Of a DNA stretch of 62,489 nt, positions 13,001-43,565 are shown in pieces. The notes beneath the pieces are model-generated. The model saw only the letters and a list, made by a program, of their open reading frames with translations. It made no database searches and was not told the DNA's origin. Made by a program: the position numbers and the translations under genes. Within the stretch, counting starts at the first letter, position 1. Every line of letters starts with the position of its first letter. This DNA comes from Pseudomonadota bacterium (GTDB lineage: Bacteria > Desulfobacterota > Desulfobacteria > Desulfobacterales > RPRI01): contig JBDRRF010000028.1 in NCBI GenBank assembly GCA_043825875.1, positions 1 through 62,489 on the forward strand. Direction: 5' to 3'.

Positions 13001-13027
13001 TATGATTTATCATTCTCCTATCCTATT

Positions 13028-13118
13028 GAATATCGAATATCGAACAAGAAATTCCCAATTATGAAGTTCTTTACCTTCCTTTTACATTCTACATTCGATA
13101 TTGGATATTCTATATTCA
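13028..13118. repeat. Inverted GAATATC/GATATTC heptamer element
   Basis: GAATATCGAATATCGAACAA ... TTCGATATTGGATATTCTATATTC. The left end is shared with the element at 768. Confidence 0.6.
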
Positions 13119-25176: not shown

Positions 25177-25319
25177 ATCTGAGTCCCTTCGTAGTTTCTG
25201 CTCCATAAATTGCACATAAACCGATTATATTATATTTCAGAAATATTTGAAAGTAAGTTCTTCTCACACTCCGGATTCTTTCAAATGGCTCTTTAATCCC
25301 TTCCTCATAAATTACCTCA

Positions 25320-25640
25320 GAAATGAAAATCCAAATAACAAGCATCAAATAACAAAATAATTCCAAACAGCAAATATTGAAATTCCAAATTCCAAAAATC
25401 AATGACTGTAACTATTTGGTTTTTTACAATATTATTATTTTTGGCAATTTTTTAACAAAAAGCCGTACAGCTTTAGCGAATTGAAAAATTCTTTCCTCAA
25501 GATCAAATACTGATTTGTGATTTGTGATTTGTATTTTATTATTTGTGATTTTTTTGTTTTTTGTGATTTGTTTTTTGTGTTTTCTTCCTTCAACATTCAT
25601 TATTCATTATTCAATTTTTATTATTCATTATTCAATTTAC
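25320..25640. repeat. Inverted heptamer arrays (AAATNNN / NNNATTT, plus TTCATTA units) around a four-helix-bundle remnant
   Basis: AAATCCAAATAAC...AAATTCCAAATTCC to the left, GATTTGTGATTTGTGATTTGT to the right. Confidence 0.75.
25412..25510 (-). pseudogene. Internally deleted four-helix-bundle (TIGR02436-like) gene
   Basis: Translates VFDLEERIFQFAKAVRLFVKKLPKII-IL*KTK*, i.e. a family-like N-terminus joined to a C-terminus-like end. Confidence 0.75.
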
Positions 25641-25646
25641 TTTCCT

Positions 25647-28346
25647 TTAGAGCCTGTCCAGTACCTCCCTCACTTTTCTTGCCAGACTATCTGGTGTAAA
25701 AGGCTTCTGGAGAAAGGGAATCTCTGCATCAAGTACTCCACTATGAACAATGCCGCTATCCGTATAACCCGACATATAAAGTACCTTCAAATCCCTGCAC
25801 ACATCCTGAGCCTTCGCGGCCAGGACTTCTCCACCCATCTCAGGCATTATAATATCGGTCAGCAGCAGATGAATCATTTTTTCTTGCTCCCTTAAGATAC
25901 GCAGGGCTTTTTGACCATCCGGAACGCTTATGACTTGATAGCCAAAACTTTTCAGAGCCTTAAAAGCTACTTTTCTGACCATCTCATCATCTTCAACCAA
26001 CAGGACAGTCTCGGAACCATGAAGTACTTCTTCCCTTGCATCCCCCTCTTTAGGCGATTGAGGAGCTTTTTCACAACTGGGAATATAAATCTTGAAGGTA
26101 GTTCCTTTCCCCGGCTCACTGTAAACCCATATGTAGCCGTTGCTCTGCTTTACAATACCATATGCCGTAGACAGCCCGAGCCCCGTTCCCTTGCTCTTAT
26201 CCTTGGTAGTAAAAAAGGGTTCGAAAACATGAGGCTGCACCTCCCTTGCAATTCCGATCCCTGAGTCGCTCACGGCCAGCATAACGTAAGAACCTGGTAT
26301 CATCGCGTGCGCATCGGTATATTCTTCATCCAGCTCAATGTTTTTTGTCTCGATGGTGAGATTTCCACCCTTCGGCATGGCATCTCTGGCATTGACGACA
26401 AGGTTCATGATCACCTGTTCAATCTGCCCAATATCCGCCTCAACCTGTCCCAGATCAGGGGCCAGATTTGTTATTAGCTTTATATCTTCACCAATTATAC
26501 GGCTAAGCATACTTCCCATTTCATTTACGATCTCGTTGAGATTGATCACTTCAGGTTGAAGAATCTGCTTCCGGCTGAAGGCCAGGAGTTGATTGGTTAA
26601 ACCTGACGCCCTTTGTCCTGCATCTTTGATCTCTCCAACCATTTCATGCTCCGGATGATCTTTTCCTATGCCAATAAGAGCCAATTCGGCATTTCCGATA
26701 ATAGTAGTCAAAAGATTATTAAAATCATGGGCAATGCCAGCAGAAAGCCTGCCGATAGCCTCCAGCTTCTGGGACTGGCGAAGCTGCTCCTGTAAGTTTT
26801 TACTCTCGGTAATGTCTGTATGAACTGAGATAAGAACTTTCCCATATTTTGAATGATCGAACACAGAAGCATTTGCATAACACCAAAATTTCGACCCATC
26901 TTTCCTGATATTTTTCACTTCGCCCTGCCAGCAACCCTTTTCATGTAAAATTGCCATAATATTTTTGGCAGTCTCTTCAGGCTTTATTTCTGCTGAAGCA
27001 TTTACAATTGAAACATGCTTTCCGAGCATTTTTCCTTGTTCATAGCCGAACATTTTTTCAAATATCGAATTCGTATATACAATAATACCATCTTCCATCC
27101 TGACAAGATAGACTGCTTCAGCCAAATTCGTCATGATTTCACTTTGAAACCGCAGTTCCTCCTCCGCCTGCTTGCGCTCGGTTATATCGAAGATATAATG
27201 AACGAACAGATCCTCTGAGAGATCTTCCCATATACCTTCGTACCATATTCCTCTGTACTCGACTTCGACCTTTTGCGATTTCCCGGTCGTCCACAGTTTG
27301 GGTGCAAGACAGAAAGGGCAGTAATCGTCTCGCAAGGCGCATGTCTTGAAGCATGTCTGGCCCGGAACGGCCCCGATCTCACGGGCGTGTCTATTGGAAG
27401 CTACAATTTCACGGGTGCTTTTCTTGAGGATCAATGCAATACAACCTGGAATATTATCAAGCAAAGCCGTTCGCATTTGGAATTCCCTCTCCATATTTTC
27501 TTCCGCCCTCTTGCGCTCGGTGATGTCGTTGAATGTAACAATAAGAATATCTGAGAGGAATGTAGCATAGAGTTCGCAAATGCGTTCAGAACCATCAACA
27601 CAGGTAACCCGGTATTCACCTGTGTTGACAGTCTGGCGCGATTCACGGGCTATTTCTAAAAAAGGTTTCCATCGTTCAATCACTTCACGGCGGTAATCGG
27701 GGTCAGGGTAAGCAATCTGATACCACTCGGATGCTGTAGGCGCGGTATGCCCAAAAAGGATAAGGGCGGAGATACTCCAGAAATGAATTTTATCATCATG
27801 CAAGTCAACAACTGCAATTGGAAATGGGGTAGCATTGAGAATGGTACGCAATTTTCCTTCACTCTCCCGTAGTGCTTCTTCCACATTCTTGCGCTCGGTT
27901 ATTTCTTTTAAAAGTTGCGCATTTTTGCTTTTCAGATTCAATTGCAACCGGTTAATGGATAAATGGGTTTTTACTCTTGCAAGCACTTCTGCTGCATAAA
28001 ATGGTTTATTAATATAATCAACAGCGCCGGCTTGAAACCCTTTGTTTTTTGAACGCTGATCCTCCAAGGCACTGATAAAAATAACCGGAATAGAACTCGT
28101 TTTTTCATCCGCTTTGAGCTTCCGACACACTTCCAAACCATCCATGCCTGGCATCTTGATATCCAGCAAAATGAGCGTCGGCGGTTTGTCTTTCGCGCTG
28201 CGTAGCGCTGTCTCACCATCACTGTTTGTGCGAACTTTGTAGTCGGCATTACTTAGAATATCGGATAACAATTTCAAATTGAATTCCGCGTTATCGACAA
28301 CAAGGATTTCATCACGGGCTGTTAAATCGGGTTCAGTGATATTCAT
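25647..28346 (-). CDS. Hybrid histidine kinase (REC, PAS domains, HisKA, HATPase, REC)
   Basis: LLDIKMPGMDG, AGIAHDFNN, GTGLGLSTAYGI and C-terminal REC. Confidence 0.95.
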   Translation of the reverse strand: MNITEPDLTARDEILVVDNAEFNLKLLSDILSNADYKVRTNSDGETALRSAKDKPPTLILLDIKMPGMDGLEVCRKLKADEKTSSIPVIFISALEDQRSKNKGFQAGAVDYINKPFYAAEVLARVKTHLSINRLQLNLKSKNAQLLKEITERKNVEEALRESEGKLRTILNATPFPIAVVDLHDDKIHFWSISALILFGHTAPTASEWYQIAYPDPDYRREVIERWKPFLEIARESRQTVNTGEYRVTCVDGSERICELYATFLSDILIVTFNDITERKRAEENMEREFQMRTALLDNIPGCIALILKKSTREIVASNRHAREIGAVPGQTCFKTCALRDDYCPFCLAPKLWTTGKSQKVEVEYRGIWYEGIWEDLSEDLFVHYIFDITERKQAEEELRFQSEIMTNLAEAVYLVRMEDGIIVYTNSIFEKMFGYEQGKMLGKHVSIVNASAEIKPEETAKNIMAILHEKGCWQGEVKNIRKDGSKFWCYANASVFDHSKYGKVLISVHTDITESKNLQEQLRQSQKLEAIGRLSAGIAHDFNNLLTTIIGNAELALIGIGKDHPEHEMVGEIKDAGQRASGLTNQLLAFSRKQILQPEVINLNEIVNEMGSMLSRIIGEDIKLITNLAPDLGQVEADIGQIEQVIMNLVVNARDAMPKGGNLTIETKNIELDEEYTDAHAMIPGSYVMLAVSDSGIGIAREVQPHVFEPFFTTKDKSKGTGLGLSTAYGIVKQSNGYIWVYSEPGKGTTFKIYIPSCEKAPQSPKEGDAREEVLHGSETVLLVEDDEMVRKVAFKALKSFGYQVISVPDGQKALRILREQEKMIHLLLTDIIMPEMGGEVLAAKAQDVCRDLKVLYMSGYTDSGIVHSGVLDAEIPFLQKPFTPDSLARKVREVLDRL

Positions 28347-28369
28347 CTGATCTCCTTTGACTTATTATT

Positions 28370-28433
28370 TCACCCATAAGCACTTCATGCAATACTATGC
28401 TCAATGATTGTGTTTCAAACAGCTTGGGTAATA
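28370..28433 (-). pseudogene. 3' remnant of a hybrid kinase receiver domain
   Basis: ILPKLFETQSLSIVLHEVL matches the C-termini of the 30338 and 33057 kinases at both protein and DNA level. Confidence 0.7.
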
Positions 28434-28562
28434 TACACCATGGAGATAATCCCAAATAATAAATTCCAAATTCCAAGCACCAAATTACAATGAAATTCCA
28501 AATTCCAAAAGTGAAAATCCACACACAGAGCGGGTAGCCTCAAAAAGCCCCCCCTACTATTT

Positions 28563-28676
28563 CTCCTCTCCCCTCGCGGGAGAGGGCCAGGGTGAGGGGG
28601 AATAAAAAAATAGTCGTTCATTTACTTCCACTTTTTTCACCCCCACCCTAACCCTCCCCCATCAATGGGGAGGGAA
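28563..28676. repeat. Inverted pair of CCCCTCACCC..CCCTCTCCC-N-GGGAGAGG-type REP-like elements
   Basis: CCTCTCCCCTCGCGGGAGAGGGCCAGGGTGAGGGGG and CCCCCACCTAACCCTCCCCCATCAATGGGGAGGG. Confidence 0.7.
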
Positions 28677-28771
28677 TTTAAAATCAACATTAATTATATT
28701 ATTTCCATTATCACCGGATCGGTGGTATCTATCCGGGCCCTCCACCTGATGTGGAGGGTTTAAATCGATAC

Positions 28772-28822
28772 TAACTGAAAAGTTCTCTCCTCAAGATCAT
28801 ATACAGGTTTATTATCTGTCAG
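28772..28822 (-). pseudogene. Short 5' remnant of a four-helix-bundle gene
   Basis: Translates TDNKPVYDLEERTFQL. DNA matches the 30230-30270 copy. Confidence 0.65.
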
Positions 28823-28864
28823 TTGTGATTTGTTATTTATTTGTTATTTGTGTTTTGTCTTTTG

Positions 28865-30010
28865 TTATTTGCCATTATATATATCAATATCCTGATAATA
28901 CTTTCTCTCACATTCCGGGCAAATACCATGAGTAAATTCAGCTCCGGAATGATCTCTGATGTAGGCTTCGATCTGATTCCAATAACCTTTGTCATCTCTT
29001 ATTTTTTTACAGTGAGAACAGATAGGAAGCATTCCGCTTAACAGCTTTACCTTTTGCAGGTTATCCTTAAGGTCTGTAATCAATTTTTCTTTTTCTTTTT
29101 CCGCCCTCTTGCGCTCAGTGACATCCTGACCGGTCACCAGCAAACCGATAATCTTTCCGTTTTTATCTTTTAAGGTTCGGTCATACCACTCAATATCCCT
29201 TTCGCTTCCATCCTTTAACAGTATTGAGCTAACAATACCCTTGGTCCGGATATCTCCAACAGCTTTTTTAAAAAGCACTCTGATGTTGTCACGCTCTCTT
29301 GCTGGAATAAATGTAGAAAACCATTCTTTTCCTTTTATCTCATCAAGCCGATAACCTGATAATTCCTCCATAAAAGTATTAATGCTGATGATATAACCGC
29401 CAAGGTCCAGAACTACGATTATTGTCTGGGCAGTGTTAAGGATGTTTTTCGAAAATTCATGTTCCTTATAAAGAGCCTCATCTGCCCTCTTGTGTTCGAC
29501 AATTTCCCATCCAACATCGGCCAGAAAGGATACCTTTTCAACATCATCTTCGGTATAATCGGCAGGCTTATTGCCTACCCCAAGAATGGCCATGATCCGA
29601 TCGTCTCTCATTACGGGTACAACCAGCTCCCGGATAATTGCCGCATGTCCCGGAGGCAAACCTTTCCGGTGCGGCAATGAAGCATAATCGTTATGAATCA
29701 CCGGCCGCCGTTGATGTACGCAGTCTACCCATACTCCGGCCCGGTCGATTTCGTAATGTGTTCCTTTCCCTTCCGCCTTACAAAACTCATTTACCGTTCG
29801 CGTTGACCATGCCTGGAGTGAAAGGGTCTTTTGGTCACTCTCTACAAAGTGAAAAAAACCGATGGGACTTTCGGTTAATTTACCAACTTCGTCCATTGTT
29901 TTCTGAATCAGTTCTTCAAGAGAATGAGATATCGCGAATTCGAATAAACGAAGACGGATACGAATAAAATCCCTTGTCTTTGAACTGGGCTTTGATTTTG
30001 CTTGTTCCAT
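28865..30010 (-). CDS. GAF-PAS protein with C-terminal CxxC...CxxC domain, no kinase
   Basis: GAF (WVDCVHQRRPVIHNDY), PAS, and LPICSHCKKIRDDKGYW...THGICPEC. Confidence 0.88.
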   Translation of the reverse strand: MEQAKSKPSSKTRDFIRIRLRLFEFAISHSLEELIQKTMDEVGKLTESPIGFFHFVESDQKTLSLQAWSTRTVNEFCKAEGKGTHYEIDRAGVWVDCVHQRRPVIHNDYASLPHRKGLPPGHAAIIRELVVPVMRDDRIMAILGVGNKPADYTEDDVEKVSFLADVGWEIVEHKRADEALYKEHEFSKNILNTAQTIIVVLDLGGYIISINTFMEELSGYRLDEIKGKEWFSTFIPARERDNIRVLFKKAVGDIRTKGIVSSILLKDGSERDIEWYDRTLKDKNGKIIGLLVTGQDVTERKRAEKEKEKLITDLKDNLQKVKLLSGMLPICSHCKKIRDDKGYWNQIEAYIRDHSGAEFTHGICPECERKYYQDIDIYNGK

Positions 30011-30079
30011 TATGCATTACCTCAGATATAATTTTGCTCGATTTTGCAAATCGTTTTCATTTAATCTTGGCAGTAATAA

Positions 30080-30350
30080 AATTATAAATCCCAAGCACCA
30101 AATAACAATTAAATTCCAAACTACAAATGACAAAGAAATACCAAAAAAACAATGACTGTAACTATTTGATTTTTCAGTTTTATTGTATTTGGCAACGTTT
30201 TAACAAAAAGCCGGACAGCTTTCGCAAATTGGAAAGTTCTCTCCTCAAGATCATATATAGGTTTGTTCTTTGTCATTTTGTTATTTGTGATTTTTTTGCG
30301 ATTTGTATTTTGTTATTTGTTTGTTTTTTGAAATTTGTTATTTGTTATTT
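30080..30350. repeat. Inverted heptamer arrays around a four-helix-bundle remnant
   Basis: AAATAAC/AAATTCC/AAATGAC units to the left, ATTTGTT/ATTTGTG units to the right. Confidence 0.75.
30162..30276 (-). pseudogene. Internally deleted four-helix-bundle gene
   Basis: ATG 30276: MTKNKPIYDLEERTFQFAKAVRLFVKTLPNTI, then GAAAAATCAAATAG. ~110-bp direct repeat with 25400-25510. Confidence 0.78.
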
Positions 30351-32800
30351 TCTTCTTTCAGTACTTCATGCAATACTTTGCTCAATAATTGTGTTTCAAA
30401 CGGTTTGGGGAACACCCCCTTAAACCCGTATTCCTTAAAATTTGCCAGGACCGGATCAACGGAGTAACCGCTGGAGACGATAGCTTTAACTTCAGGATCT
30501 ATCTCCAGCAATTTTTCAATCGCCTCCTTCCCGCCCATTCCGCCGGGAACAGTTAAATCCAGGATAACGGCATCATAAGGCTTCTTGGATTCTTTTGCTT
30601 CTTTAAACATCTCAATCGCTTCAACACCATCTTTTGCAAATTCGGGTTCGTAACCCAATTTTTGCAACACTCTCCCAAACGTTCTCCTTAACGACGCTTC
30701 GTCATCCATCACCAGAATCCTGCCATGGCCGGTTATAAGTTGAACATCTTCTTTTTCTGAGACTGTTTTATCGGAAGCAGGTAAATAGATATAAAATGTT
30801 GTACCAACCCCTAATTGGGATTCCACAGTAATATGCCCATCGTGCTTTTTGATGATGGAATAAGTCGTAGCAAGCCCAAGGCCGTTTCCTTTCTGCTTTG
30901 TGGTAAAATAAGGATCAAAAACATTTGAAATATGCTTTTCAGCTATACCTATTCCCTGATCCTTAATTGATATACTGATGTATCTGCCCGTCTTCAAAGG
31001 CAGTTCGTGTCGATCATCTATTATCAGATTTTCTGCTGCAATCTGAATTATTCCACCCTCCGGCATGGCCTGGTTTGCATTAATGACAATATTATTGATG
31101 ACCTGACTGATCTGCCCGATATCAATTTCTGCCGGCCAGAGGTTTTCTGCTATCGAAAACTCGCAAGCTGATTTTGAACCCCGCAGCACAAAGAGCGAAG
31201 ATTCTTCTATAATTTCTTTGATTGAGGCAATCTCTTTTAACGGCACCCCACCCTTAGCAAAGGTCAATAACTGCCTGGTTAGTGCCTGAGCCCTTACAGA
31301 AGCCATCTCTGCTTCACTTAACAACTCAAAGATCTCATCATCAGACTTTGACTGCATTTTAGCAATGGCAATACTGCCGATAATCGTGGTCAGGATATTG
31401 TTAAAATCGTGGGCGATACCTCCTGCCAGCACCCCAACGGATTCAAGTTTCCGGGAGGTTAACAGTTCCTCTTCCATTTTCTTACGCTCGGTAATATCAT
31501 GTACAATGGCTATCAGATATTGTTCGCCCTCAATTTCAAAACATTCAATCGACAAAAGAGTATGCCGGACTTCGCCTGTCTTACGCCATAAATCTATTTC
31601 GTAATTACGCAGCGAGCCTGTTTCCTGTAATTTTTGCATTGCTTTTTTGCGATTTGCCGGATCTCCCCAGATACCAATTGAAACCGAAGTTTTACCAACC
31701 GCTTCGGCCCGGCTGTGGCCAAAGGTCTCTATCCAGGTTTGGTTAACCTCCATAATTGTGCCGTCTGCCATCCTGCTGATCGTCATGGGATTGGGGCTGG
31801 CACGAAACGCTTTGGAAAAGCGTTCTTTTTCAACGTGCAGCGCCTCTTCTATTTTCTTACGCTCGGTGATATCGTTATATACTATTATCACCCCAAAGGG
31901 TTCTATCGGAATGGGAGCAGCAGTTACATTGAGCCAGATGACATCCCCATCTCCCCTGATAACGCCCATTTCAATATTTTCAACCAAACGCTTTTCTTTC
32001 AGGGCTCTAACGCTTGGATACTCATTTCCAGGCATGGTGGAGCCGTCCGGCCGGATGATATGCCATTCGCTGTCATAAATTTTTTTATTAATATTATCTT
32101 CCAGTGGCAATTTTAACAGCCGCTCTGCCTCCTTATTACTTTCCAAAATCATTCCATCTTTATCCGATATAGTAACTCCTATAGGCAATGATGCGAATAG
32201 AGTTTGATATTTTATCAGATTTGCCTTAAGCTCTTTTACTGCTTGCTTGCGCACTTCTATTTCCTCTGAAAGATTATCGTTTGCTTTTTTGAGTTCAGAC
32301 GTGCGTTCTTCTACTATTTTTTCAAGCAGCAGTTTTGATTCTTTCAGGACATCGTTGCTACGACGATTTTCAAATATCAGCGCCACATGGTTTGCAAGAT
32401 TTTCCATATATGGTTTATATTTATAAAATTCACTGCTTTCATCATAATTTATCAGGAAATATCCATAACGATTTGATTCGGTTTGAAGGGAGATACAACA
32501 AATGTTTTTTTCCTTATCCCATAAACATGAATGATTCAGAAATACACTTTCCGGATTCGATGGATATTGACAAAATGCACAAGGACTTTCGTTTATTGCG
32601 TGTGAGCCGTCTCGTTTATTAAACAATTTGGAATGTTCGTCTAACTTGCCATTGATACACATCCATACTGAACATATGCCGGGAACAGCGTTTATTCCAT
32701 GACATACATACTCTGAAAGGCTTTTGTCATTCGACATCACATGCATGGTGTTCTGAATCAGAAGAAATTTGCCAAGAATTTTGGAATCAATATCAGCCAT
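30338..32800 (-). CDS. Hybrid histidine kinase (GAF-like, 2 PAS, HisKA, HATPase, REC)
   Basis: GGIAHDFNN, GNGLGLATTYSI, LVMDDE and ILDLT. Confidence 0.95.
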   Translation of the reverse strand: MADIDSKILGKFLLIQNTMHVMSNDKSLSEYVCHGINAVPGICSVWMCINGKLDEHSKLFNKRDGSHAINESPCAFCQYPSNPESVFLNHSCLWDKEKNICCISLQTESNRYGYFLINYDESSEFYKYKPYMENLANHVALIFENRRSNDVLKESKLLLEKIVEERTSELKKANDNLSEEIEVRKQAVKELKANLIKYQTLFASLPIGVTISDKDGMILESNKEAERLLKLPLEDNINKKIYDSEWHIIRPDGSTMPGNEYPSVRALKEKRLVENIEMGVIRGDGDVIWLNVTAAPIPIEPFGVIIVYNDITERKKIEEALHVEKERFSKAFRASPNPMTISRMADGTIMEVNQTWIETFGHSRAEAVGKTSVSIGIWGDPANRKKAMQKLQETGSLRNYEIDLWRKTGEVRHTLLSIECFEIEGEQYLIAIVHDITERKKMEEELLTSRKLESVGVLAGGIAHDFNNILTTIIGSIAIAKMQSKSDDEIFELLSEAEMASVRAQALTRQLLTFAKGGVPLKEIASIKEIIEESSLFVLRGSKSACEFSIAENLWPAEIDIGQISQVINNIVINANQAMPEGGIIQIAAENLIIDDRHELPLKTGRYISISIKDQGIGIAEKHISNVFDPYFTTKQKGNGLGLATTYSIIKKHDGHITVESQLGVGTTFYIYLPASDKTVSEKEDVQLITGHGRILVMDDEASLRRTFGRVLQKLGYEPEFAKDGVEAIEMFKEAKESKKPYDAVILDLTVPGGMGGKEAIEKLLEIDPEVKAIVSSGYSVDPVLANFKEYGFKGVFPKPFETQLLSKVLHEVLKEENNK

Positions 32801-32803
32801 AGA

Positions 32804-32986
32804 TCAACCACCAAACCTTTCCCTGAATGATAGCAGGAATTCCTCCGGTTCAATAAAAATTGGTAAACCCCGCTTCATATTCCATAAGTTCCAGAATACT
32901 TGTTTACCTCTTAGCGCCCAGGTCATTTCAGCAGTCCCTCTTGTACCCGTAAATCCCAAAGAAATCTGTCTGCGTGAAGTTTCCAT
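32804..32986 (-). CDS. Short hypothetical ORF or gene remnant
   Basis: Fills the gap between two kinases, has a purine-rich leader and ends 3 nt before the next ATG. No recognisable motif. Confidence 0.3.
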   Translation of the reverse strand: METSRRQISLGFTGTRGTAEMTWALRGKQVFWNLWNMKRGLPIFIEPEEFLLSFRERFGG

Positions 32987-33056
32987 ACCTTCTTCCTTTT
33001 GCTTTAAAGATTTCTATCAATCTTAATCCAATACCCTTGGTCATCAATCAATATTT

Positions 33057-34748: not shown

Positions 34749-34764
34749 AATTTCAACCCCTTTG

Positions 34765-35040
34765 GATTTGTGATTGGTGCTTTAAGATTTATGATTGTTG
34801 ATTTGTGATTGTTGATTGTTTTTGGATTGATGATTGTTGATTGTTGATTGTTGATTGTTTTTGGATTTATGATTGTTGATTGTTGATTTGTGATTGTTCA
34901 AAAGGTTGTTCTTGTCTTTTCCGTTTTTCCAATCAACAATCGCAAATCGCAAATCTTCAATCTTAAATCAACAATCAACAATCGCAAATCGTCAATCACC
35001 AATCACCAATCGCAAATCACCAATCCCCAATCCCTCAATC
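34765..35040. repeat. Inverted GATTNNN / AATCNNN heptamer arrays with ~30-bp spacer
   Basis: GATTGTT/GATTTGT units at 34765-34898, spacer AAAAGGTTGTTCTTGTCTTTTCCGTTTTTC, and AATCAAC/AATCGCA/AATCACC units at 34930-35040. Confidence 0.85.
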
Positions 35041-37959: not shown

Positions 37960-37977
37960 TATAACTCCTCAATCTTT

Positions 37978-38097
37978 GGATTTATGATTGTTGATTGTTT
38001 AAAAGGTTGCTCTTGTTTTTGTCTTTTCCGTTTTTCAATCAACAATCTACAATCAACAATCGCAAATCGTCAATCGACAATCGCCAATCAACAACCC
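37978..38097. repeat. Inverted GATTNNN / AATCNNN heptamer arrays with the same spacer
   Basis: GATTTATGATTGTTGATTGTT-AAAAGGTTGCTCTTG...TCTTTTCCGTTTTTC-AATCAACAATCTACAATCAAC... Confidence 0.85.
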
Positions 38098-40155
38098 TCA
38101 CTCCTCCAGCACTTCTCTCACTTTGCGTCCCAGAGACATAGGTGAAAAGGGTTTAGCTATAAATGTCTTTCCCGGACCAAGAACCCCATGATGTACAATA
38201 CTATTATCCATGTAGCCTGACATATAAATTACCAACACTTCCGGTCTAGAGACTCTTAATTTTTTCTCCATGTCCAGGCTGCTTATTCCGGGCATGATAA
38301 CGTCCGTTAATATGAGGTGAATGGGCTCCTTATAATCTCCGGAAACTTTAACAGCTTCTTCCCCGTTTGCGGCTGTCAGAATTTTATAACCATAGCCATG
38401 AAGTACTTTTACAATAAAATTAAGCACCAACTCATCATCCTCCACAACAAGAATAGTTTCCGAACCGGTCAGGGAATCTGTTGTTTTAGCCTTCCGCTCT
38501 GTTTTAGATGGCGGTTTCCCGACCCGGGGCAGATAAATCTTGAATGTGGTTCCTTTTTCAGGCTCGCTGTAAACCCAGACATTACCGTTGCTTTGCTTTA
38601 TGATACCGTAAACGGTGGAAAGTCCAAGGCCCGTTCCCTTCCCTTTTCCCTTTGTTGTAAAAAACGGCTCAAAAATATGGGTTTGATTTTCTTTTGGGAT
38701 ACCTACTCCCGTATCGCTTATACTTAGCATTACATAAGAGCCTGGTTTTACAGCCACATGAGCGTTTGCATATTCTTCGTCTATATTTATATTTTCCGTC
38801 TCTATGGTAATCTTTCCACCCTTAGGCATAGCATCCCTGGCATTTACCACAAGATTCATTATAACCTGCTCAATCTGACCCTTATCGGCCTCTGCCTGCC
38901 CCAAATCAGGGGTAAGTATTGTTTTCAGTTCAATATCTTCTCCAATCATCCGGCAAAGCATTTTTTTCATATCCAAAGCTATTTCATTAAGATTTATTAC
39001 TGCGGGTTGAAGAGCCTGCTTCCGGCTGAAAGCTAAGAGTTGCCGGATCAATGTGGCGGATCGTTCCCCGGCAGCTCTGATCTGCTCAATATTTTCACGC
39101 AACGGATCATCCTCCGGAATGCCAATAAGGACCAGATCTGAATTTCCTATAATCGTTGTGAGAAGATTGTTGAAGTCATGGGCAATTCCTCCTGACAGAA
39201 GGCCGACAGCCTCAAGCTTCTGAGATTGCAGAAGCTGCTGTTCCAAACTCTTTCGATCTTCTTCTGCTTGCTTCCGCTCCGTAATGTCCTGAACCGTTGC
39301 AAAAATTTCGGGTTTTTTCCCCGGCCTTTGCCTGATATTGCCTACAGTACGGACAAATAAAATCTCACCGTCTTTGCGAATGATCCGGTACTCATGTGGA
39401 AGCAGTTTGTCCTGACCGGATGCAATACAGTTATTAAGCCATTTAGTCAAATGTGCCAAATCATCCGGATGATGGATTTTCTCGTTAACTTTGACATAAT
39501 CGAAAGCATCGGATTTATCGTAGCCCAGCAGATCAAACAGCGCATCGGACCAGGTGAGTTTTCCGGTTTCCACATCCCAGGTAAAATCACCCATCCTTGC
39601 CAATCTCTGTGCTTCAATCAATCTTGCTTCGCTTTCGCGAAGGGCTTTTTCGGCCTCTCGCCGCACCTGGACTTCTCTTTCCAATTCCATCATCTTCTGT
39701 TCAAGCTTTCTTACTAACCGTTCACTGTAAAGCTTGAACATTTCATCTTCATCCACCGGAACCGGCGCTAAAGCAATACTACAACTCCTGGCGGTCATCA
39801 TTACATCACGAATAGCCTCCATAAATACATCCGGCTCACATGGCTTTAAAATGAACCTGTCCGCACCGATCCTGATGGCAAATTCCTGATCCTGCGGGCC
39901 AGTATAAGTGGCAGTATAAATTATGAACGGAATATGACACAAATTCTCATCTGTTTTGACTTTTCGGCATAACTGAAATCCGTCCATTACAGGCATGAGA
40001 ATATCGCTGATGATCAGCTCGATCTCCCCGGCATTGAGCTTTTCAAGCGCCTCGGCACCGTTTGCCGCCGCCTCGACATCATGGCCGTTACCCTTGAGCA
40101 GTACTTCCAGGAGGTAAAGGTTTTCTTCTATGTCATCTACGATGAGAATCTTCAT
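38098..40155 (-). CDS. Hybrid histidine kinase (REC, PAS, HisKA, HATPase, REC)
   Basis: LIVDD, ISDILMP, GGIAHDFNN and GTGLGLSTVYGI. Confidence 0.95.
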   Translation of the reverse strand: MKILIVDDIEENLYLLEVLLKGNGHDVEAAANGAEALEKLNAGEIELIISDILMPVMDGFQLCRKVKTDENLCHIPFIIYTATYTGPQDQEFAIRIGADRFILKPCEPDVFMEAIRDVMMTARSCSIALAPVPVDEDEMFKLYSERLVRKLEQKMMELEREVQVRREAEKALRESEARLIEAQRLARMGDFTWDVETGKLTWSDALFDLLGYDKSDAFDYVKVNEKIHHPDDLAHLTKWLNNCIASGQDKLLPHEYRIIRKDGEILFVRTVGNIRQRPGKKPEIFATVQDITERKQAEEDRKSLEQQLLQSQKLEAVGLLSGGIAHDFNNLLTTIIGNSDLVLIGIPEDDPLRENIEQIRAAGERSATLIRQLLAFSRKQALQPAVINLNEIALDMKKMLCRMIGEDIELKTILTPDLGQAEADKGQIEQVIMNLVVNARDAMPKGGKITIETENINIDEEYANAHVAVKPGSYVMLSISDTGVGIPKENQTHIFEPFFTTKGKGKGTGLGLSTVYGIIKQSNGNVWVYSEPEKGTTFKIYLPRVGKPPSKTERKAKTTDSLTGSETILVVEDDELVLNFIVKVLHGYGYKILTAANGEEAVKVSGDYKEPIHLILTDVIMPGISSLDMEKKLRVSRPEVLVIYMSGYMDNSIVHHGVLGPGKTFIAKPFSPMSLGRKVREVLEE

Positions 40156-40171
40156 TATTTTCTCCTTCCTT

Positions 40172-40240
40172 TGGTATTTTTGATTTGCGATTGTTGATTT
40201 AAAAGCTGTTTCCCAATCGCAAATCCTAAATCACAAATCG
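40172..40240. repeat. Short inverted heptamer arrays at the 3' end of the four-helix-bundle gene
   Basis: GATTTGCGATTGTTGATTT-AAAAGCTGTTTCCC-AATCGCAAATCCTAAATCACAAATCG. Confidence 0.8.
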
Positions 40241-40596
40241 TGTTGCTTTCGGTTCTGTGAGGTCTTTCTAGTTGCAACAAATATTGATGTCAATTCATGT
40301 CCCTCTTTGAAAAGAGGCAAAACCTTTTCCTTTGTCATCAATTTTTCATCCATTATAAACTCGAGCCAGAATTCGGATTCATCTGACTCTTCTATCACGA
40401 TGCTTATCTTGGCAATGAATGCTGCCTTAGACTGTGAGTGTAGTGTCGCCCGGTAGTTTGCCGCAACGGAAGTGGAACACCGCGTCAACTGACGCTCTAA
40501 ATGTCTTCCGAGCGTCGTTTTTGGCAAGGCAACAGCAAGCTTCACACAACGATGAGCAAACTCTTTTGTTCTCTTTTTCAACTCTTCGGAATCCAA
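40231..40596 (-). CDS. Four-helix-bundle protein (TIGR02436 / 23S rRNA IVP / Avd-like), 121 aa
   Basis: ELKKRTKEFA, QLTRCSTSVAANY, SKAAFIAKISIVIEESDESEFWLE, EGHELTSIF. TTG start at 40596 behind AAGGAGG. Confidence 0.92.
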   Translation of the reverse strand: MDSEELKKRTKEFAHRCVKLAVALPKTTLGRHLERQLTRCSTSVAANYRATLHSQSKAAFIAKISIVIEESDESEFWLEFIMDEKLMTKEKVLPLFKEGHELTSIFVATRKTSQNRKQHDL

Positions 40597-40611
40597 ACAA
40601 CCCTCCTTATA

Positions 40612-40770
40612 GATTGATGCTTTTCGATTTATGGATTTCACAATCAACAATCACATATCGCCAATCACAAATCGCCAATCACATATCAACAATCACAAAT
40701 CGCCAATCACATATCAACAATCACAAATCGCCAATCACAAATCAACAATCACAAATCGCCAATCACAAAT
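40612..40770. repeat. Long AATCNNN heptamer array upstream of the four-helix-bundle gene
   Basis: About 17 units AATCACA/AATCGCC/TATCAAC/AATCAAC at 40641-40770, with a short GATT arm at 40612-40639. Confidence 0.88.
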
Positions 40771-41125
40771 ATCTCCGTATTTCTTCTGCAAAAGTCTCAG
40801 GATCAATCGGTTTTTCGATGTAACCTGCGGCACCGGCCGCCAGGATCTGTTCACGATCCCCAACCATGGCATAAGAAGTAACCGCAATAATGGGCACGTT
40901 CTCCAGTTCTTTGTGTTTCTTGAGTTCAGTGGCGACAGCATATCCGTCCATTTCAGGAAGCTGAATATCCAGCAATATTGCTTTAGGCTTGTGTTGCAAA
41001 GCCTTGTCGATACCCTCCCGGCCATTTTCAGCACCAATTACCGTAAAACCGTTTTTTTCAAGCAGAAAACACATCATATAAAAATTCTGCTGATTGTCTT
41101 CAATAATCAACAAAGTATTGCTCAT
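40763..41125 (-). CDS. Single-domain response regulator (DivK-like)
   Basis: LIIED, LLDIQLPEMDG, AVTSYAM and IEKP. ATGA overlap with the upstream kinase stop. Confidence 0.92.
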   Translation of the reverse strand: MSNTLLIIEDNQQNFYMMCFLLEKNGFTVIGAENGREGIDKALQHKPKAILLDIQLPEMDGYAVATELKKHKELENVPIIAVTSYAMVGDREQILAAGAAGYIEKPIDPETFAEEIRRYL

Positions 41126-43221
41126 GGTAAACCTCCAGCCTGTTCCGGAAAACGTATTGTGAAAATGCTGCCCTTGCCCCATTGGCTCCAAACATCAATA
41201 GTTCCACCCATCATATCTAGCAGTTTTTTGCATATGGAAAGCCCCAGACCTGTACCCTCGTGTTTGCGTGTAAGCCCGGTATCGATCTGGTGGAAAGGTT
41301 GAAAAAGGCCGGAGAGTTCTTCAGGCCGCATGCCAATGCCGGTATCTGAAACCGACAGAAGATATTTATCATTTTCAATGCGGCATGAAATACTTACATA
41401 TCCTTTTTCTGTAAATTTTACTGCATTGTTTAGCAGATTAAGTATTATTTGTTCCAGACGACGCTGATCCGTTGTTGCGGTTTTGATATCATCTGCAATG
41501 TCAACCCTTAGATCAAGACCCTTCTGTTCGGCCATAGGCAAAACCAATTTGATCATTTTTTCAATGGACGGCTTCAATTCAAAGGGTGCAACAGAAAGCT
41601 CCAATTGACCTGCCTCGATTTTGGAAATGTCAAGCACATCGTTGATCAAAGAAAGAAGATGGCGGGAACTGCTTTGCACCATTTTCAATTGCTTGTACTG
41701 CTCTTCGTTTATAGGACCTGCCAATTCCTGGAGCATAATACCGGTAAATCCGATTATGGAATTAAGCGGCGTACGCAATTCATGGGACATGGTAGCCAGA
41801 AAGGCGGATTTGATCCTATCGGAGGATTCCGCCCGTTCCTTGGCAATAAGCAACTCTGCGGTGCGATCGGCCACACTTTGCTCGAGGACCTCAGCGTGTT
41901 GCCGCAATTCATCATTGAGACTGTGAATTTGTTCCTCAGCTTGCTTTTGGTCGGTTATGTCGGAACCAATGCTCAAAATTTCCGTTATCTGTCCCTGCTC
42001 ATCGAACACCACTTTGTTTGTCCAGTCAATCCATACCCGTTCGCCATTGCGGCGCATATTCTCATTTATATTACGCTCAAACATATGCGGGTCGGCCAAA
42101 ATTTCCTCCATCAGCGGGCGTAAACTCCTGCCTGTAGTTTCATTCTCATGGACTATAGTTCCAACCACATGCCTGCCAAGAATTTCCGTTTCCGTATATC
42201 CGAAAAATTTCTGGCCGAACTCATTCATGAAAGTAATCTGTCCATCGCGCGACCACCGCAAGATGATGCTGTTGGCCAGCATCACTAATTCGCGATATTT
42301 TCGTTCGCTTGCCCACAATTCCCGGGTACGCGTATTCATCTGATGTTTTAAAACAATACTTCCTAACAGGCTCATGAGAAGTACAACAACTGTGACAAAG
42401 GCAAGCACTTTAACCCAAACCGGTATGTTTAAACTTACCTCCTCGGAAATCCATTTTTTAAGCGACTGGTAGTATATCGACTGTGTATCTTTTTTCAGAT
42501 TTATGAGATGAGCATCAATAGCATTCAATATTTTTTGGTGAGTACCTTTAGATGCTGCAAAAAAGAGGTTGGATGGGTTAAAAATAACCGCTGTATCTTC
42601 AAGACCAAATTTCTTTGCATGCATCAGCCCATAGAAACAATTAGATATGGCAGCATCAGCCTCACCTTCGGCAACCTTCTTGAAAACGGTTTGGTAATCC
42701 GGCAGTGAAATCATAGTAGTGTTTAACCAAAACCCGGCAATAAGCCGGTTAAACGCATCCTGCTGAACCGAACGTTCCAGAACGGCAATTCGTTTTCCAT
42801 CCAGATCCAATATCGATTTAATTCCGCTGTCTTTGCGGGCATACACCTGAAACCATGAGGACAAAACCGGAACCTTCTGAAAGGAAAAGATTCTTGCACG
42901 ATCCGCCGTATAAGCCACATCAGGCATAATATCGATTTCCCCTTTTTCCAGGCGTTTTAATCCATCACCCCAGGTACCGGTCACGTATTGCAGGCTCCAA
43001 CCCTCTTTTTTAGCTATGTACTCTATGAGATCAACAAATATGCCGGCGGGCTTGCCGGATTCGGAGATGAAAATCTTCGGCGCATTTTCATAAACCCCGA
43101 CAGCCACAATCCGGTCATCGGCACTTGCAGATGTAATTCCAAAACACCATAAAGATAATAAAACAATAAAAAGGGTTAATGCTAATTGAAAGAAACAAAC
43201 AGTGTTTCTGTCGTTTTTCAT
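41122..43221 (-). CDS. Sensor histidine kinase with periplasmic substrate-binding (family 3) domain and PAS
   Basis: Signal/TM segment, GKPAGIFVDL, TM, PAS, FLATMSHELRTPL and GTGLGLSI. Start uncertain (ORF extends to 43305). Confidence 0.92.
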   Translation of the reverse strand: MKNDRNTVCFFQLALTLFIVLLSLWCFGITSASADDRIVAVGVYENAPKIFISESGKPAGIFVDLIEYIAKKEGWSLQYVTGTWGDGLKRLEKGEIDIMPDVAYTADRARIFSFQKVPVLSSWFQVYARKDSGIKSILDLDGKRIAVLERSVQQDAFNRLIAGFWLNTTMISLPDYQTVFKKVAEGEADAAISNCFYGLMHAKKFGLEDTAVIFNPSNLFFAASKGTHQKILNAIDAHLINLKKDTQSIYYQSLKKWISEEVSLNIPVWVKVLAFVTVVVLLMSLLGSIVLKHQMNTRTRELWASERKYRELVMLANSIILRWSRDGQITFMNEFGQKFFGYTETEILGRHVVGTIVHENETTGRSLRPLMEEILADPHMFERNINENMRRNGERVWIDWTNKVVFDEQGQITEILSIGSDITDQKQAEEQIHSLNDELRQHAEVLEQSVADRTAELLIAKERAESSDRIKSAFLATMSHELRTPLNSIIGFTGIMLQELAGPINEEQYKQLKMVQSSSRHLLSLINDVLDISKIEAGQLELSVAPFELKPSIEKMIKLVLPMAEQKGLDLRVDIADDIKTATTDQRRLEQIILNLLNNAVKFTEKGYVSISCRIENDKYLLSVSDTGIGMRPEELSGLFQPFHQIDTGLTRKHEGTGLGLSICKKLLDMMGGTIDVWSQWGKGSIFTIRFPEQAGGLP

Positions 43222-43334
43222 CGCACTTTCTTGATATAGTACAATAACTTTTACCGGGCACATAGATTTCATCTTCCTGTAGAACAATGTTTTAATTTTC
43301 AGCACAGATTGAGATTGAAGGAAACTGTTGAAGC

Positions 43335-43550
43335 TAAATATTAAATCCTAAACAACAAGCACCAAATAACAATGAAATTCCAAATTCCAAATTCCAAAAA
43401 TCAATAACCGAATTACAATGAAATTCTAAAAGTCAATGACCAAGTTACAACGAAAGCTCAAATTCCAATTACCAAAACTATGTTGTGTGATTTGTCATTT
43501 ATTTATTTGTATTTTGTAATTTGTGATTTATTTGTTATTTGTCATTTATA
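43335..43550. repeat. Inverted AAATNNN / NNNATTT heptamer arrays with no gene remnant
   Basis: CAAGCACCAAATAACAATGAAATTCCAAATTCC (shared with 28475 and 30092), then GATTTGTCATTT...ATTTGTTATTTGTCATTT. Confidence 0.75.
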
Positions 43551-43565
43551 AATGGTTGATATAGA

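Follow-up and report, generated by a model that had tools for sequence, protein, structure and literature searches.

Repeat arrays in a two-component signalling operon

The window analysed here is a stretch of 62,489 nucleotides from contig JBDRRF010000028.1 of a Desulfobacterota genome (assembly GCA_043825875.1, denoted as G000). Genes around the junctions between 25.3 and 43.6 kb all belong to two-component signalling and are all encoded on the minus strand, and the cassettes described below occupy the gap between the stop codon of the upstream gene and the ribosome-binding site of the following gene (Table 1). At each of the eight coordinates for which the initial annotation had reported heptamer arrays, Tandem Repeats Finder and sequence inspection revealed arrays whose period is 7 or a multiple of it. 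Since 40172 and 40612 mark opposite sides of a single junction, the number of junctions is seven rather than eight. Two array classes are present, denoted as class A (GATTGNN/NNCAATC) and class B (AAATTCC, AAATAAC/TTTGTTA). A further hairpin, of the GAATATC type, is located beyond the range covered by the initial annotation, and its unit type recurs at C41:22618, C57:6753, and C82:9891.

All window copies sit between protein-coding genes and not in a 23S rRNA gene; an Rfam scan of the window returned no RNA family, and the genome contains no assembled 23S rRNA gene. None of the 24 terminator-like sites between 25000 and 44000 falls within a junction array, where no GC-rich stem followed by a T-run was found. 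Promoter-like sites did not exceed those of shuffled sequences (46 vs 40.4 ± 6.3). The proposal that the elements carry no transposase, integrase, or reverse transcriptase of their own is borne out by a Pfam scan of 34 long ORFs in the window, none of which matched such an enzyme.

Table 1. Features of the window, with coordinates in the 62,489-nucleotide stretch
Feature	Position	Strand	Details
Small inverted heptamer hairpin, GAATATC type	13024..13117	.	
Host context	24145..47396	-	Co-directional two-component genes: RR-HD, hybrid kinases, GAF-PAS, CheB-CheR-PAS, receiver, SBP-kinase (Pfam)
Class B junction	25320..25640	-	AAATAAC/AAATTCC arm, core 25396-25512, TGATTTG arm
Class B junction	28445..28872	-	AAATTCC arm, nested GC-rich dispersed repeat (~28510-28775), gene 5' remnant, TTTGTTA arm
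Class B junction	30080..30351	-	Arm, core 30150-30262 (internally deleted four-helix-bundle gene), arm
Gene-less class A hairpin	34765..35041	-	~16-17 units per arm, 30-nt loop, TRF score up to 191, inverted score 36.5
Gene-less class A hairpin	37978..38094	-	Starts 4 nt past upstream stop, ends ~22 nt before next start
Short class A hairpin directly downstream of intact gene	40172..40230	-	GATTT-type units, 13-nt loop, AATC-type units
Intact four-helix-bundle gene, cargo of class A cassette	40231..40596	-	121 aa, TTG start, GGAGG-like site ahead
Leader with ribosome-binding site and long upstream class A array	40597..40770	-	TRF periods 14 and 28, score 183-219
Gene-less class B arrays, abutting arms	43335..43550	-	

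The intact gene and the class A elements

The intact gene is located between a response regulator and the next kinase. Its product matches PF05635 (E 2e-12, 47.6 bits against a cut-off of 33.8), TIGR02436 (E 1.4e-18, 67 bits against a cut-off of 24), and the PDB entry 2rld (E 5e-14). The predicted structure comprises four helices with a pLDDT of 95.7. The fold search ranked 2rld (Foldseek TM 0.84/0.90) and 2gsc (0.81/0.87) highest, followed by Avd (4dwl and 8ub7; TM 0.75–0.84), which the sequence profile of these four-helix-bundle proteins did not reach at E ≤ 1. Both solved relatives were deposited with five chains. Together with the class A units on both sides, these matches uphold the initial description of an intact four-helix-bundle gene bracketed by arrays.

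On the sense strand, the upstream array is composed of GTGATTG/GCGATTT units, the first of which contains the TGA stop codon of the regulator. The distal arm of the short downstream hairpin is also complementary to this upstream array. At the gene-less hairpin 34765–35041, the CheB-CheR-PAS ORF runs approximately 10 codons into the array and ends at a TGA within a unit. The loops of this hairpin and of 37978–38094 are 94% alike over 36 nt. No gene remnant was found at 34765, 37978, or 43335.

Class B junctions retain pieces of a related gene

The core 25396–25512 retains approximately 25–28 codons of the N-terminus of a four-helix-bundle gene together with its 3' end, and was matched by a fragment query with an E value of 1.7e-7. 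The core 30150–30262 is 86% alike to it over 106 nt. The reading of 30133–30252 begins with 25 residues that share 92% identity with the N-terminus of a PF05635 gene (119 aa) found intact in the congener G016, and the 3' end of the core matches the 3' end of a half-gene in the relative G008. When searched alone, neither class B fragment matched any NCBIfam family in a profile search, and our own HMM search with the 30124–30312 fragment alone yielded only an E value of 8.4. At the third junction, merely about 30 nt of the 5' end of the gene (28776–28808) remain, matching both class B cores; the nested GC-rich insert of this junction has copies on contigs C33, C51, C9, C68, and C109. Accordingly, of the three decayed copies initially reported, two are clear and the third is minimal. 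They had been assigned to the same gene family as the intact window gene; the class B remnants represent a distinct four-helix-bundle subfamily with 32% identity to it.

The class B series thus ranges from an intact gene in G016 through a C-terminal half in G008 and an N-terminus plus 3' end in the window to remnants of 14–30 nt elsewhere. Since the two cores are 86% alike, compared with only ~71–72% for the ends of the neighbouring kinases, the class B cassettes appear younger than their host genes. The proposed series of intact, deleted, and empty elements is present within the window, with the intact gene at 40231–40596, deleted genes at 25396–25512 and 30150–30262, and gene-less arrays at 34765, 37978, and 43335. 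A third array type, TTCAATA/TTCATTA, follows the TGATTTG arm of the first junction at 25589–25638, and the TTCAATA type borders window-type four-helix-bundle genes in G008 and G011.

Arm pairing, folding and strand orientation

At each of the seven junctions, local alignment paired the arrays with an inverted partner (scores 15–36.5); among 3000 random genome placements, whose layout differs somewhat from that of the junction test, the 99.9th percentile was 14.5. Folding of the sense-strand RNA was compared with 60 dinucleotide shuffles. Class A elements fold markedly better than the shuffles, with z scores of −8.9 (34749–35034), −5.9 (37960–38097), and −5.0 (40156–40230; minimum free energy −16.4 against −6.4 ± 2.0). 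In contrast, class B elements do not fold better than chance (z −0.1 for 25216–25646, −2.0 for 30011–30337, and +0.8 for 43306–43565), and the z score of −8.0 for 28347–28864 originates from the unrelated GC-rich insert. An array-free control gap (32801–33056) gave −0.6. The suggestion that each array can fold into a long hairpin thus applies to class A but not to class B.

The elements follow the direction of the host operon. The operon strand carries all four window copies in which gene sequence is present. The four-helix-bundle gene is co-oriented with both flanking ORFs at 18 of 18 determinable loci (29 in total), and the upstream arm is richer in G than in C on the sense strand at 42 of 45 informative loci (47 in total; the set includes some orthologues, so not all loci are independent). 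Among 22 elements of an octamer family in G000, the complementarity of an element's own arms (mean 19.7) does not exceed that with the arms of other elements (20.8; permutation p 0.96). Therefore, no compensatory upkeep of a particular stem is seen, and what is conserved is the unit type.

Association of the gene family with tandem arrays across genomes

The co-occurrence of PF05635 genes with tandem arrays extends beyond the window. In G000, the flanks of five of the eight PF05635 matches show inverted or direct repeat scores within the top 0.3% of 3000 random placements, and arrays are absent at the other three (C5:70979, C88, and C76). The C40 cassette has flanking arrays in direct rather than inverted orientation. 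At the level of the order, sampled with 30 genomes, inverted flanks reach this top-0.3% level at 23 of the 30 best loci. In a sample spanning the phylum, inverted arrays at that level are present at 24 of 28 loci and direct arrays at the other four, compared with 0 of 51 shifted controls. In both the order and the phylum samples, every subfamily of the four-helix-bundle gene is accompanied by its own unit of 7–9 nt.

Most arrays in G000 are gene-less. Merging the period-7/8 arrays gave a total of 243, and for 59 of them an inverted partner was located within 900 nt. The inverted pairs form 42 loci; 22 of these belong to the octamer class bordering the gene on contig C56, and 20 of the 22 lie between co-directional ORFs. 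The octamer family comprises the intact copy on C56, remnants with both termini on C12 and at C5:29079, N-terminal remnants on C79 and C54, and approximately 15 gene-less hairpins of 70–110 nt each. The hairpin loops that were compared by eye resemble each other and retain both ends of the gene interior. In total, 46 octamer arms are distributed over more than 12 contigs, and the gene-less copies share one common deletion form. Gene-less copies descended from gene-bearing ones and later multiplied in gene-less form. Clustering around a gene-bearing copy is seen for two unit types: no class A match (12 in total) is more than 6 kb away from the class A gene, and 5 of 11 ACRGTTK matches are near the C40 gene.

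Orthologous junctions are filled, differently filled or empty

Comparison with relatives confirmed presence/absence polymorphism, with sites empty or differently filled in congeners. The junction between the response regulator and the kinase contains the intact gene with class A arrays in both G000 and G008, and the upstream array differs in unit number and order between the two despite 94% identical flanks. In G013, this junction is occupied by a gene-less hairpin of 82 nt that belongs to another class, and in G027 and G029 it carries no arrays. The arrays at 43335 are missing in G008, where a gap of ~12 nt separates flanking genes of 93–94% identity. Two octamer hairpins elsewhere in G000 correspond to empty sites in two congeners each. 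Neither a target duplication nor clean insertion boundaries were seen between filled and empty sites, a weak negative at identities of 81–88%, which blur the boundaries. At one site, element traces are retained in six of six congeners, indicating that not all copies are recent.

Comparison with known systems

The closest counterparts are the intervening sequences (IVSs) of 23S rRNA that bear an ORF, described for Coxiella burnetii and also for Leptospira, Brucella, and Xanthomonas (as cited in PMC4990558). In Coxiella, RNase III cuts the 28-bp stem formed by the IVS termini, and an S23p ORF, reported as probably untranslated, is preceded by tandem GACAGAT heptamers whose number varies among strains; the Xanthomonas S23p protein Xcc0516 forms a toroidal homopentamer (PMC4990558). 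As in the IVSs described there, terminal inverted repeats enclose a small S23p/four-helix-bundle ORF; these repeats form a long stem in class A but not in class B. The tandem heptamers of variable number just upstream of the ORF, the lack of a mobility enzyme, the sporadic distribution, and the orientation in the sense of the host transcript are likewise shared. In contrast to the IVSs, the hosts are protein-coding operons rather than helix 9, 25, or 45 of 23S rRNA, the window arms are long arrays of up to ~17 units, and tens of dispersed gene-less derivatives and several unit classes coexist within one genome. Excision by RNase III is a feature of the IVSs and a prediction for the window cassettes. 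In our literature search, published accounts of a four-helix-bundle gene placed within repeat arms were found only inside 23S rRNA intervening sequences.

In the REP/REPIN system, a RAYT gene copy is flanked by repeats that are also dispersed genome-wide as gene-less inverted intergenic doublets. The loci described above similarly include gene-less inverted doublets of the gene-flanking repeat in intergenic gaps, mostly inside operons. Unlike RAYT, an HUH tyrosine (Y1) transposase, the sole ORF of the cassette encodes a 120-aa helical bundle of PF05635; the repeats are tandem 7–9-nt units instead of one fixed palindrome, and the gene-less copies retain the ends of the gene interior. MITEs are also short non-coding derivatives of a coding parent, generated by internal deletion and subsequent amplification, but the present elements lack a transposase parent and defined terminal inverted repeats, and target-site duplications were not seen within the limits noted above.

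PF05635 is said to resemble Avd of diversity-generating retroelements (DGRs) (PMC10053308), and our model comparison points to a common fold. Unlike the DGR arrangement, the PF05635 genes of G000 have no adjacent reverse transcriptase, and the sequence profile falls short of Avd. Tandem heptamers of the TAACTGA type have been reported in Beggiatoaceae, Cyanobacteria, and Bacteroidetes (MacGregor 2015, PMC4679880). They resemble the present arrays in being intergenic and close to start or stop codons, in changing by 7-nt indel steps from strain to strain, and in being absent from the corresponding sites of the closest relatives. In contrast, they are almost only direct, and the main text of that report names no associated gene ("four helix" and "23S" each occur 0 times).

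A cassette model and its alternatives

Considering these findings, we propose, with a probability of about 0.5, that the junction arrays are the arms of four-helix-bundle cassettes, likely transcribed with the operon, whose hairpins would be cut by RNase III as in the 23S rRNA IVSs. We read the window elements as IVS-like cassettes located outside rRNA and acting presumably at the RNA level. The cassette would be co-transcribed with its host operon, and the arms are predicted to pair in the operon RNA. By analogy with the ORF-bearing IVSs, RNase III may cleave the paired arms. The only protein encoded by the cassette, the small four-helix-bundle protein, might form a ring and bind its own repeat units, thereby marking the copies to be propagated. 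The model is supported by the gene-array association, the deletion series, the site polymorphism, the youth of the cassettes relative to host genes, the strand-specific design, the location between co-directional ORFs, the class A hairpins, and the Coxiella precedent. Against it stand the class B arms that fold no better than shuffles, the arm complementarity that is no higher within than between elements, the loci with direct arrays, the three array-free PF05635 matches in G000, the lack of clean boundaries or target duplications, the site with traces in all congeners, and the probable non-translation of the Coxiella ORF. On co-occurrence, site polymorphism, assembly, and the lack of an own enzyme, the outcomes favour the initial interpretation.

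A mobile element acting at the DNA level, in the manner of REPIN/RAYT or IS200/IS605, is the most serious alternative, although we regard it as rather unlikely. Here, the arms would form single-stranded DNA hairpins during replication, the ring would recognize the units, cutting and joining would fall to an enzyme of the host or to a distant one, and the operon location would merely reflect where insertions are tolerated. The dispersal of gene-less octamer copies of one deletion form favours this explanation, as it requires an action in trans on the arms. The conservation of the unit type rather than of pairing within an element points the same way, as does the clustering of class A and ACRGTTK copies near gene-bearing ones, which resembles local hopping; the strand asymmetry of the arms is also compatible with a single-stranded DNA intermediate. 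However, the cassettes neither contain nor adjoin a transposase of the HUH or any other type, fixed ends and target-site duplications were not seen, and the number and order of units differ among arms, in contrast to the fixed REP palindromes. By our own estimate, the complete co-orientation also exceeds what a leading-strand gene bias would produce.

Retro-mobility, in which an arm-closed cassette RNA is copied by a reverse transcriptase encoded elsewhere with the four-helix-bundle protein as an Avd-like RNA-binding partner, appears improbable. The fold search placed the model beside Avd both free and within the DGR ribonucleoprotein, the genome contains two reverse transcriptase loci (C109 and C68), and an RNA copy of the cassettes would likely exist given their sense orientation in operons. 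Nevertheless, the PF05635 matches, on contigs C5, C12, C28, C40, C56, C76, and C88, share no contig with these loci, so that a reverse transcriptase adjoins none of the eight, and the failure of the profile to reach Avd weighs further against this route. There is similarly little to recommend the arrays as ordinary slippage-made intergenic repeats of the STRR or TAACTGA kind, serving as host signals for translation or mRNA stability, in which the genes merely settle or persist. The preponderance of gene-less arrays and the fast change in unit number between 94%-identical genomes agree with slippage, and translational control was proposed for intergenic heptamers close to start codons (MacGregor 2015, PMC4679880). 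It is opposed by the near-total link between gene and array in the phylum sample, the separate unit of each gene subfamily, the gene pieces retained in gene-less arrays, and the orthologous operons that do without arrays. Finally, an artefact of short-read binning is negligible as an explanation. G000 is a draft of 118 contigs, and many PF05635 matches in relatives are located at contig ends; therefore, the repeats break assemblies, and array lengths may be collapsed. The initial concern about assembly is nonetheless answered by the recurrence of the same junction elements with matching flanks in independently assembled genomes.

Beyond the cassette model, we tentatively raise a bolder possibility that we judge to be doubtful. 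IVS proteins and their 7–9-nt arrays might constitute a self-recognising module, in which the ring reads its own unit in single-stranded form and thereby labels both the cassettes and their gene-less descendants to be propagated by the host machinery. Such a module would represent a mobile element that lacks its own enzyme, many unexplained bacterial heptamer arrays would be accounted for, and rRNA intervening sequences would be just one landing place.

To our knowledge, structures have been solved for the large protein family PF05635/TIGR02436 but no function is known, the tandem heptamers noted long ago in many bacterial genomes lack an explanation, and how rRNA intervening sequences arose and move has been unsettled for decades. 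One 18-kb stretch ties these three subjects together, as it holds intact, deleted, and gene-less copies of two classes, with the corresponding sites in close relatives filled, differently filled, or empty. The elements occupy the gaps where operon genes are coupled. They also affect assembly and annotation by breaking contigs and altering the C-termini of neighbouring proteins, as in the CheB-CheR ORF that ends in an array.

Arrays and an intact gene in the signalling operon

The initial annotation proposed an element family that lacks its own enzyme and whose members are intact, deleted or empty. This proposal is supported by the association of genes with arrays, by a series of copies and by polymorphism at orthologous sites. 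The observation is real within limits: only class A gaps fold better than shuffles, and the class B fragments belong to a different subfamily of four-helix-bundle (4HB) genes (TIGR02436/PF05635, S23p) from the intact gene of the window. The host genome (G000) is a 4.77 Mb draft of 118 contigs with 39% G+C, and the window comprises the entire contig C28, on which the two-component signalling genes between 24 and 47 kb all lie on the minus strand. Tandem Repeats Finder (period 7 or multiples) and reading of the sequence located arrays at all eight positions annotated as junctions, although these amount to seven, since 40172 and 40612 are the two sides of a single gap with its gene. Their units fall into two heptamer types, classes A and B. 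Each array had been thought capable of forming a long hairpin. This is true for class A only, because the class A gaps, as sense-strand RNA, fold far above dinucleotide shuffles (z −8.9, −5.9 and −5.0), whereas the class B gaps fold no better than shuffles (z −0.1, −2.0 and +0.8). At 28347–28864, z is −8.0 owing to a GC-rich repeat nested there; a gap free of arrays gave −0.6. Neither a terminator nor a promoter role of the arrays is supported: none of the 24 terminator-like sites of the region lies inside an array, and promoter-like sites do not exceed shuffles. An Rfam scan of the window returned no known RNA family.

The intact class A gene matches TIGR02436 (E = 1.4e-18), PF05635 (E = 2e-12) and the solved BT_0352 protein 2rld (E = 5e-14). 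Its predicted structure consists of four helices with a pLDDT of 95.7 (18-sequence alignment), and Foldseek ranked 2rld and 2gsc on top of the list for this model, followed by Avd (4dwl, free; 8ub7, in the DGR ribonucleoprotein), with TM 0.75–0.84. A sequence profile of the 4HB proteins did not reach Avd. On the sense strand of this gap, the TGA of the response regulator (~40763), which is part of the first class A unit, is followed by a 130-nt array, a leader with a ribosome-binding site and the 4HB gene. A short hairpin of class A units lies directly 3′ of the gene, and the ribosome-binding site of the next kinase follows. The CheB-CheR-PAS ORF likewise stops approximately 10 codons into a class A array (34999–35041), its TGA being supplied by a repeat unit. 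The positions of these two stop codons indicate that the arrays reshaped the C-termini of host proteins.

Coordinates of the repeat arrays and associated features in the window
Feature	Position	Strand	Description
Signalling genes	24–47 kb	−	RR-HD; hybrid histidine kinases with PAS/GAF; CheB-CheR-PAS fusion; single receiver; SBP-kinase (Pfam)
Class A array	34765–35041		GATTGNN-type units in one arm, NNCAATC in the other
Class A array	37978–38094		as above
Class A gap	40172–40770		as above
Class B array	25320–25640		AAATTCC/AAATAAC units in one arm, TGATTTG/TTTGTTA in the other
Class B array	28445–28872		as above
Class B array	30080–30351		as above
Class B array	43335–43550		as above
Ninth, small heptamer hairpin	13024–13117
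Intact 4HB gene	40231–40596	−	class A
CheB-CheR-PAS ORF	35035–37959		stop codon within class A array
Extra array	25589–25638		TGAATAA/TTCAATA unit type
GC-rich, hairpin-rich segment	28510–28775		nested in class B junction
GAF-PAS ORF	28865–30010		no kinase domains (Pfam)
Three short arrays	57922–58128		9–11-nt units, AAAGGGGCC-like and AACCCGCCAG

Association of the gene family with flanking arrays

The genome contains eight PF05635 matches. For each, the 150 nt upstream and the 150 nt downstream were aligned in inverted and direct orientation, with 3000 random placements as the reference. The anticipated co-occurrence of the family with arrays was borne out, as five of the eight matches lie in the top 0.3% of placements (contig C56, inverted 24.5; C12, inverted 17.5; C28, inverted 14.5 and direct 15.5; C5:29079, inverted 13.5; C40, direct 36); the flanks of the matches at C5:70979, C88 and C76 lie outside this fraction. 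Proximity by Tandem Repeats Finder placed arrays beside only two of the eight, because arms of three to four units are missed, and the flank alignment is the result relied on here. The flank tests also took the place of simple period-7 self-match detectors, which overlook short octamer arms as well as arrays that are degenerate or alternate their units; once thresholds are relaxed, these detectors find periods 8 and 9 equally frequent.

The C56 gene carries inverted octamers on both sides (AAGGRTTC/GAAYCCTT), and arms of the same type enclose the matches at C12 and C5:29079, which are copies of this gene with internal deletions. Among 243 merged period-7/8 arrays in the genome, 59 can be paired with an inverted array no more than 900 nt away, yielding 42 loci. 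The octamer class accounts for 22 of these loci, with N-terminal remnants at C79:232959, C79:244214 and C54:14784. It includes approximately 15 hairpins of 70–110 nt; those loops that were compared by eye resemble one another and keep both gene-interior ends, which implies that gene-less copies multiplied as such. Octamer arms are spread across more than 12 contigs; all 12 occurrences of class A units are in the window, at most 6 kb from the class A gene.

The association extends to related genomes. Within the order, 26 of 31 genomes, counting G000, contain PF05635, frequently where a contig ends. Among the 30 best loci, 23 reach an inverted flank score of at least 13, and the unit, 7, 8 or 9 nt long, is particular to the protein subfamily. 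In an even sample of the phylum, the family occurs in 67 of 121 genomes (G000 included). Of 29 further loci, one has too short a flank; inverted arrays surround 24 of the 28 evaluable loci and direct arrays the other four, and when the test was displaced by 900 nt inside the same loci, 0 of 51 such controls reached the threshold.

A second window-like cluster is located at C40:3500–13500 (locus L059), where ACGGTTK/CAACTGT heptamer arrays, all on the same strand, occupy six junctions over 9 kb; its single intact 116-aa PF05635 gene is flanked by direct, not inverted, arrays. At C76:21133–21981, the usual octamer arms enclose approximately 780 nt in place of a 4HB gene or short loop. The PF05635 gene at C88:21208–21528 has no flanking arrays and directly follows an ORF whose end may be that of a CRISPR CasE-type protein. 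The literature includes papers mentioning the family in the vicinity of cas genes.

Deleted copies and polymorphism at orthologous sites

Two class B junction cores are 86% alike over 106 nt and, when read on the operon strand, encode the first 25–28 codons of a protein. In the related genome G016, an open frame of 129 codons begins with a sequence 92% identical to residues 1–25 of the reading at 30133–30252; this frame matches PF05635 (E = 7.5e-17) and has class B arrays on both sides. The decayed copies reported by the initial annotation are 4HB fragments, but their subfamily is not that of the intact window gene (32% identity). They escape profile searches used on their own: NCBIfam gave no match for the 28-aa and 40-aa class B fragments, and a custom HMM applied to all 153,518 stop-to-stop frames of G000 recovered only the eight known matches plus the 30124–30312 fragment, at E = 8.4. 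The postulated series from intact to empty is real: the class B gene is intact in G016; its C-terminal half lies between class B arms in G008, with last bases matching the 3′ end of the window cores; the window retains the N-terminal cores; approximately 30 nt remain at junction 28445 and 14 nt of the 5′ end in a second, adjoining class B hairpin of G016; and nothing is left at 43335. Since the two cores resemble each other more closely than do the adjacent kinase ends (approximately 71–72% alike), the copies are younger than the gene duplications. A window-type 4HB gene also lies between TGAATAA/TTCAATA arrays, the unit type of the extra window array, at L009 (G008:C48, 3011–3783) and L011 (G011:C13, 8722–9273); the G011 copy is intact (116 aa; TIGR02436, E = 5e-19), and the G008 copy, by eye, looks frameshifted by one base.

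Filled, differently filled and empty sites exist among the congeners, as the idea of a polymorphic element had suggested. The gap between response regulator and kinase measures 615 nt in G000 and G008 (94% identical, with a different unit order) and contains class A arrays together with the 4HB gene. Its counterpart in G013 (80% identical) spans 82 nt and holds a gene-less hairpin of GGAATTT/AAATTCC units, and those in G027 and G029 span 30–50 nt and are array-free. G008 lacks the arrays at 43335, and approximately 12 nt separate its two orthologous genes; comparison of 43306–43565 between G000 and G008 gave no clean boundary, and the neighbouring signal-peptide region also differs. Three octamer hairpins outside the window were compared: G016 lacks both the C18 and the C83 copy, G013 lacks the C18 copy and G011 the C83 copy, and the C41 site shows arm traces and differing nested repeats in all six genomes. 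A leader belongs to the inserted stretch, as does a conserved AT-rich trailer on the far side of the hairpin. At 43335 and the octamer sites, comparison of filled with empty sites defined no exact insertion boundaries or target duplications. In G013 (L010, G013:C212), the RR-HD orthologue is followed by one other gene and then the orthologue of the 38098–40155 kinase. The five window genes at 25647–37959 have no counterpart there; the signalling genes of the array-rich stretch therefore expanded in a lineage-specific manner.

Strand polarity and proposed mode of action

At 18 of 29 loci in relatives, the 4HB gene is co-directional with the long ORFs on either side (simple stop-to-stop frames of at least 100 aa); it runs against them at none, and 11 loci are not assignable, mostly owing to contig ends. 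All window copies with gene sequence left lie on the operon strand, and the 22 octamer loci are situated between co-directional (20), convergent (2) or divergent (0) ORFs. Gene-less hairpins oriented by loop motif (n = 23) comprise 7 co-oriented, 4 opposite and 12 unassigned cases; orientation by arms was discarded as meaningless, since a hairpin reads alike on both strands. Arm polarity was evaluated at 56 loci (L030, L035 and L093 left out), 47 of which have inverted arms. On the sense strand, the upstream arm has more G than C in 42, more C than G in 3 and ties in 2, and it is purine-rich in 38 versus 9; class B is among the exceptions. The binomial p of ~1e-9 is overstated, since some loci are orthologous pairs. 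Such polarity would not be expected of a symmetrical double-stranded palindrome, so that it is apparently in single-stranded form that the element acts or is selected. We propose that the cassette, a 4HB gene between repeat arms, may act at the RNA level, a preferred mechanism to which we assign a probability of about one half.

Evidence against selection for a specific stem in each element comes from the 22 octamer elements, in which own-arm complementarity shows no excess over cross-arm complementarity (19.7 versus 20.8, p = 0.96). The direct arrays of some cassettes and the poor folding of class B also argue against a simple stem model. Unit type and repetition are conserved, which would fit recognition of the units, plausibly by a ring-shaped protein, better than selection on one helix.

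The closest described counterpart is the ORF-bearing 23S rRNA intervening sequence (IVS). According to PMC4990558, the Coxiella IVS is 428 nt long; RNase III cleaves its terminal stem of 28 bp, and its S23p ORF is preceded by two or three tandem GACAGAT heptamers, depending on the strain; earlier proposals of a mobility role for the IVS ORF are cited there. Like the IVS, the window elements combine a gene of this family with inverted ends and upstream heptamers and carry no mobility enzyme, but they are not located in rRNA, the defining site of the IVS. No 23S rRNA gene is assembled in the contigs of G000. Their population structure is similar to that of REPIN/RAYT systems, from which the elements differ in lacking a transposase, and their protein resembles Avd in its modelled fold but has no neighbouring RT. 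Intergenic heptamer repeats are described in the text of PMC4679880 without an associated gene, and a literature search largely confined to non-subscription journals found no link of the 4HB family to arrays outside rRNA.

Other repeats and rearrangements in the window

The GC-rich segment nested in a class B junction is a separate dispersed repeat with copies on C33, C51, C9, C68 and C109, the C51 copy (130221–130314) lying within another octamer hairpin. Similar GC-rich inserts occupy the C41-site gap of G008 and G016. The three short arrays of 9–11-nt units are located at and after the end of a DUF4062/HATPase_c_4 ORF. Upstream of the 25647–28346 kinase, the stretch 28347–28445 resembles, by eye, the 3′ end of the 30338–32800 kinase gene; together with the GAF-PAS ORF, it may represent a kinase gene that was broken or rearranged where an array fills the junction. 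Paralogous kinases of the window are far more alike in their 3′ parts than in their sensor parts: over the 3′ ~1150 nt (HisKA-HATPase-receiver), 30357–31498 and 33065–34205 are 83% identical, and 38105–39254 and 43585–44734 are 88% identical. This sequence similarity suggests recombination or gene conversion among the kinases.
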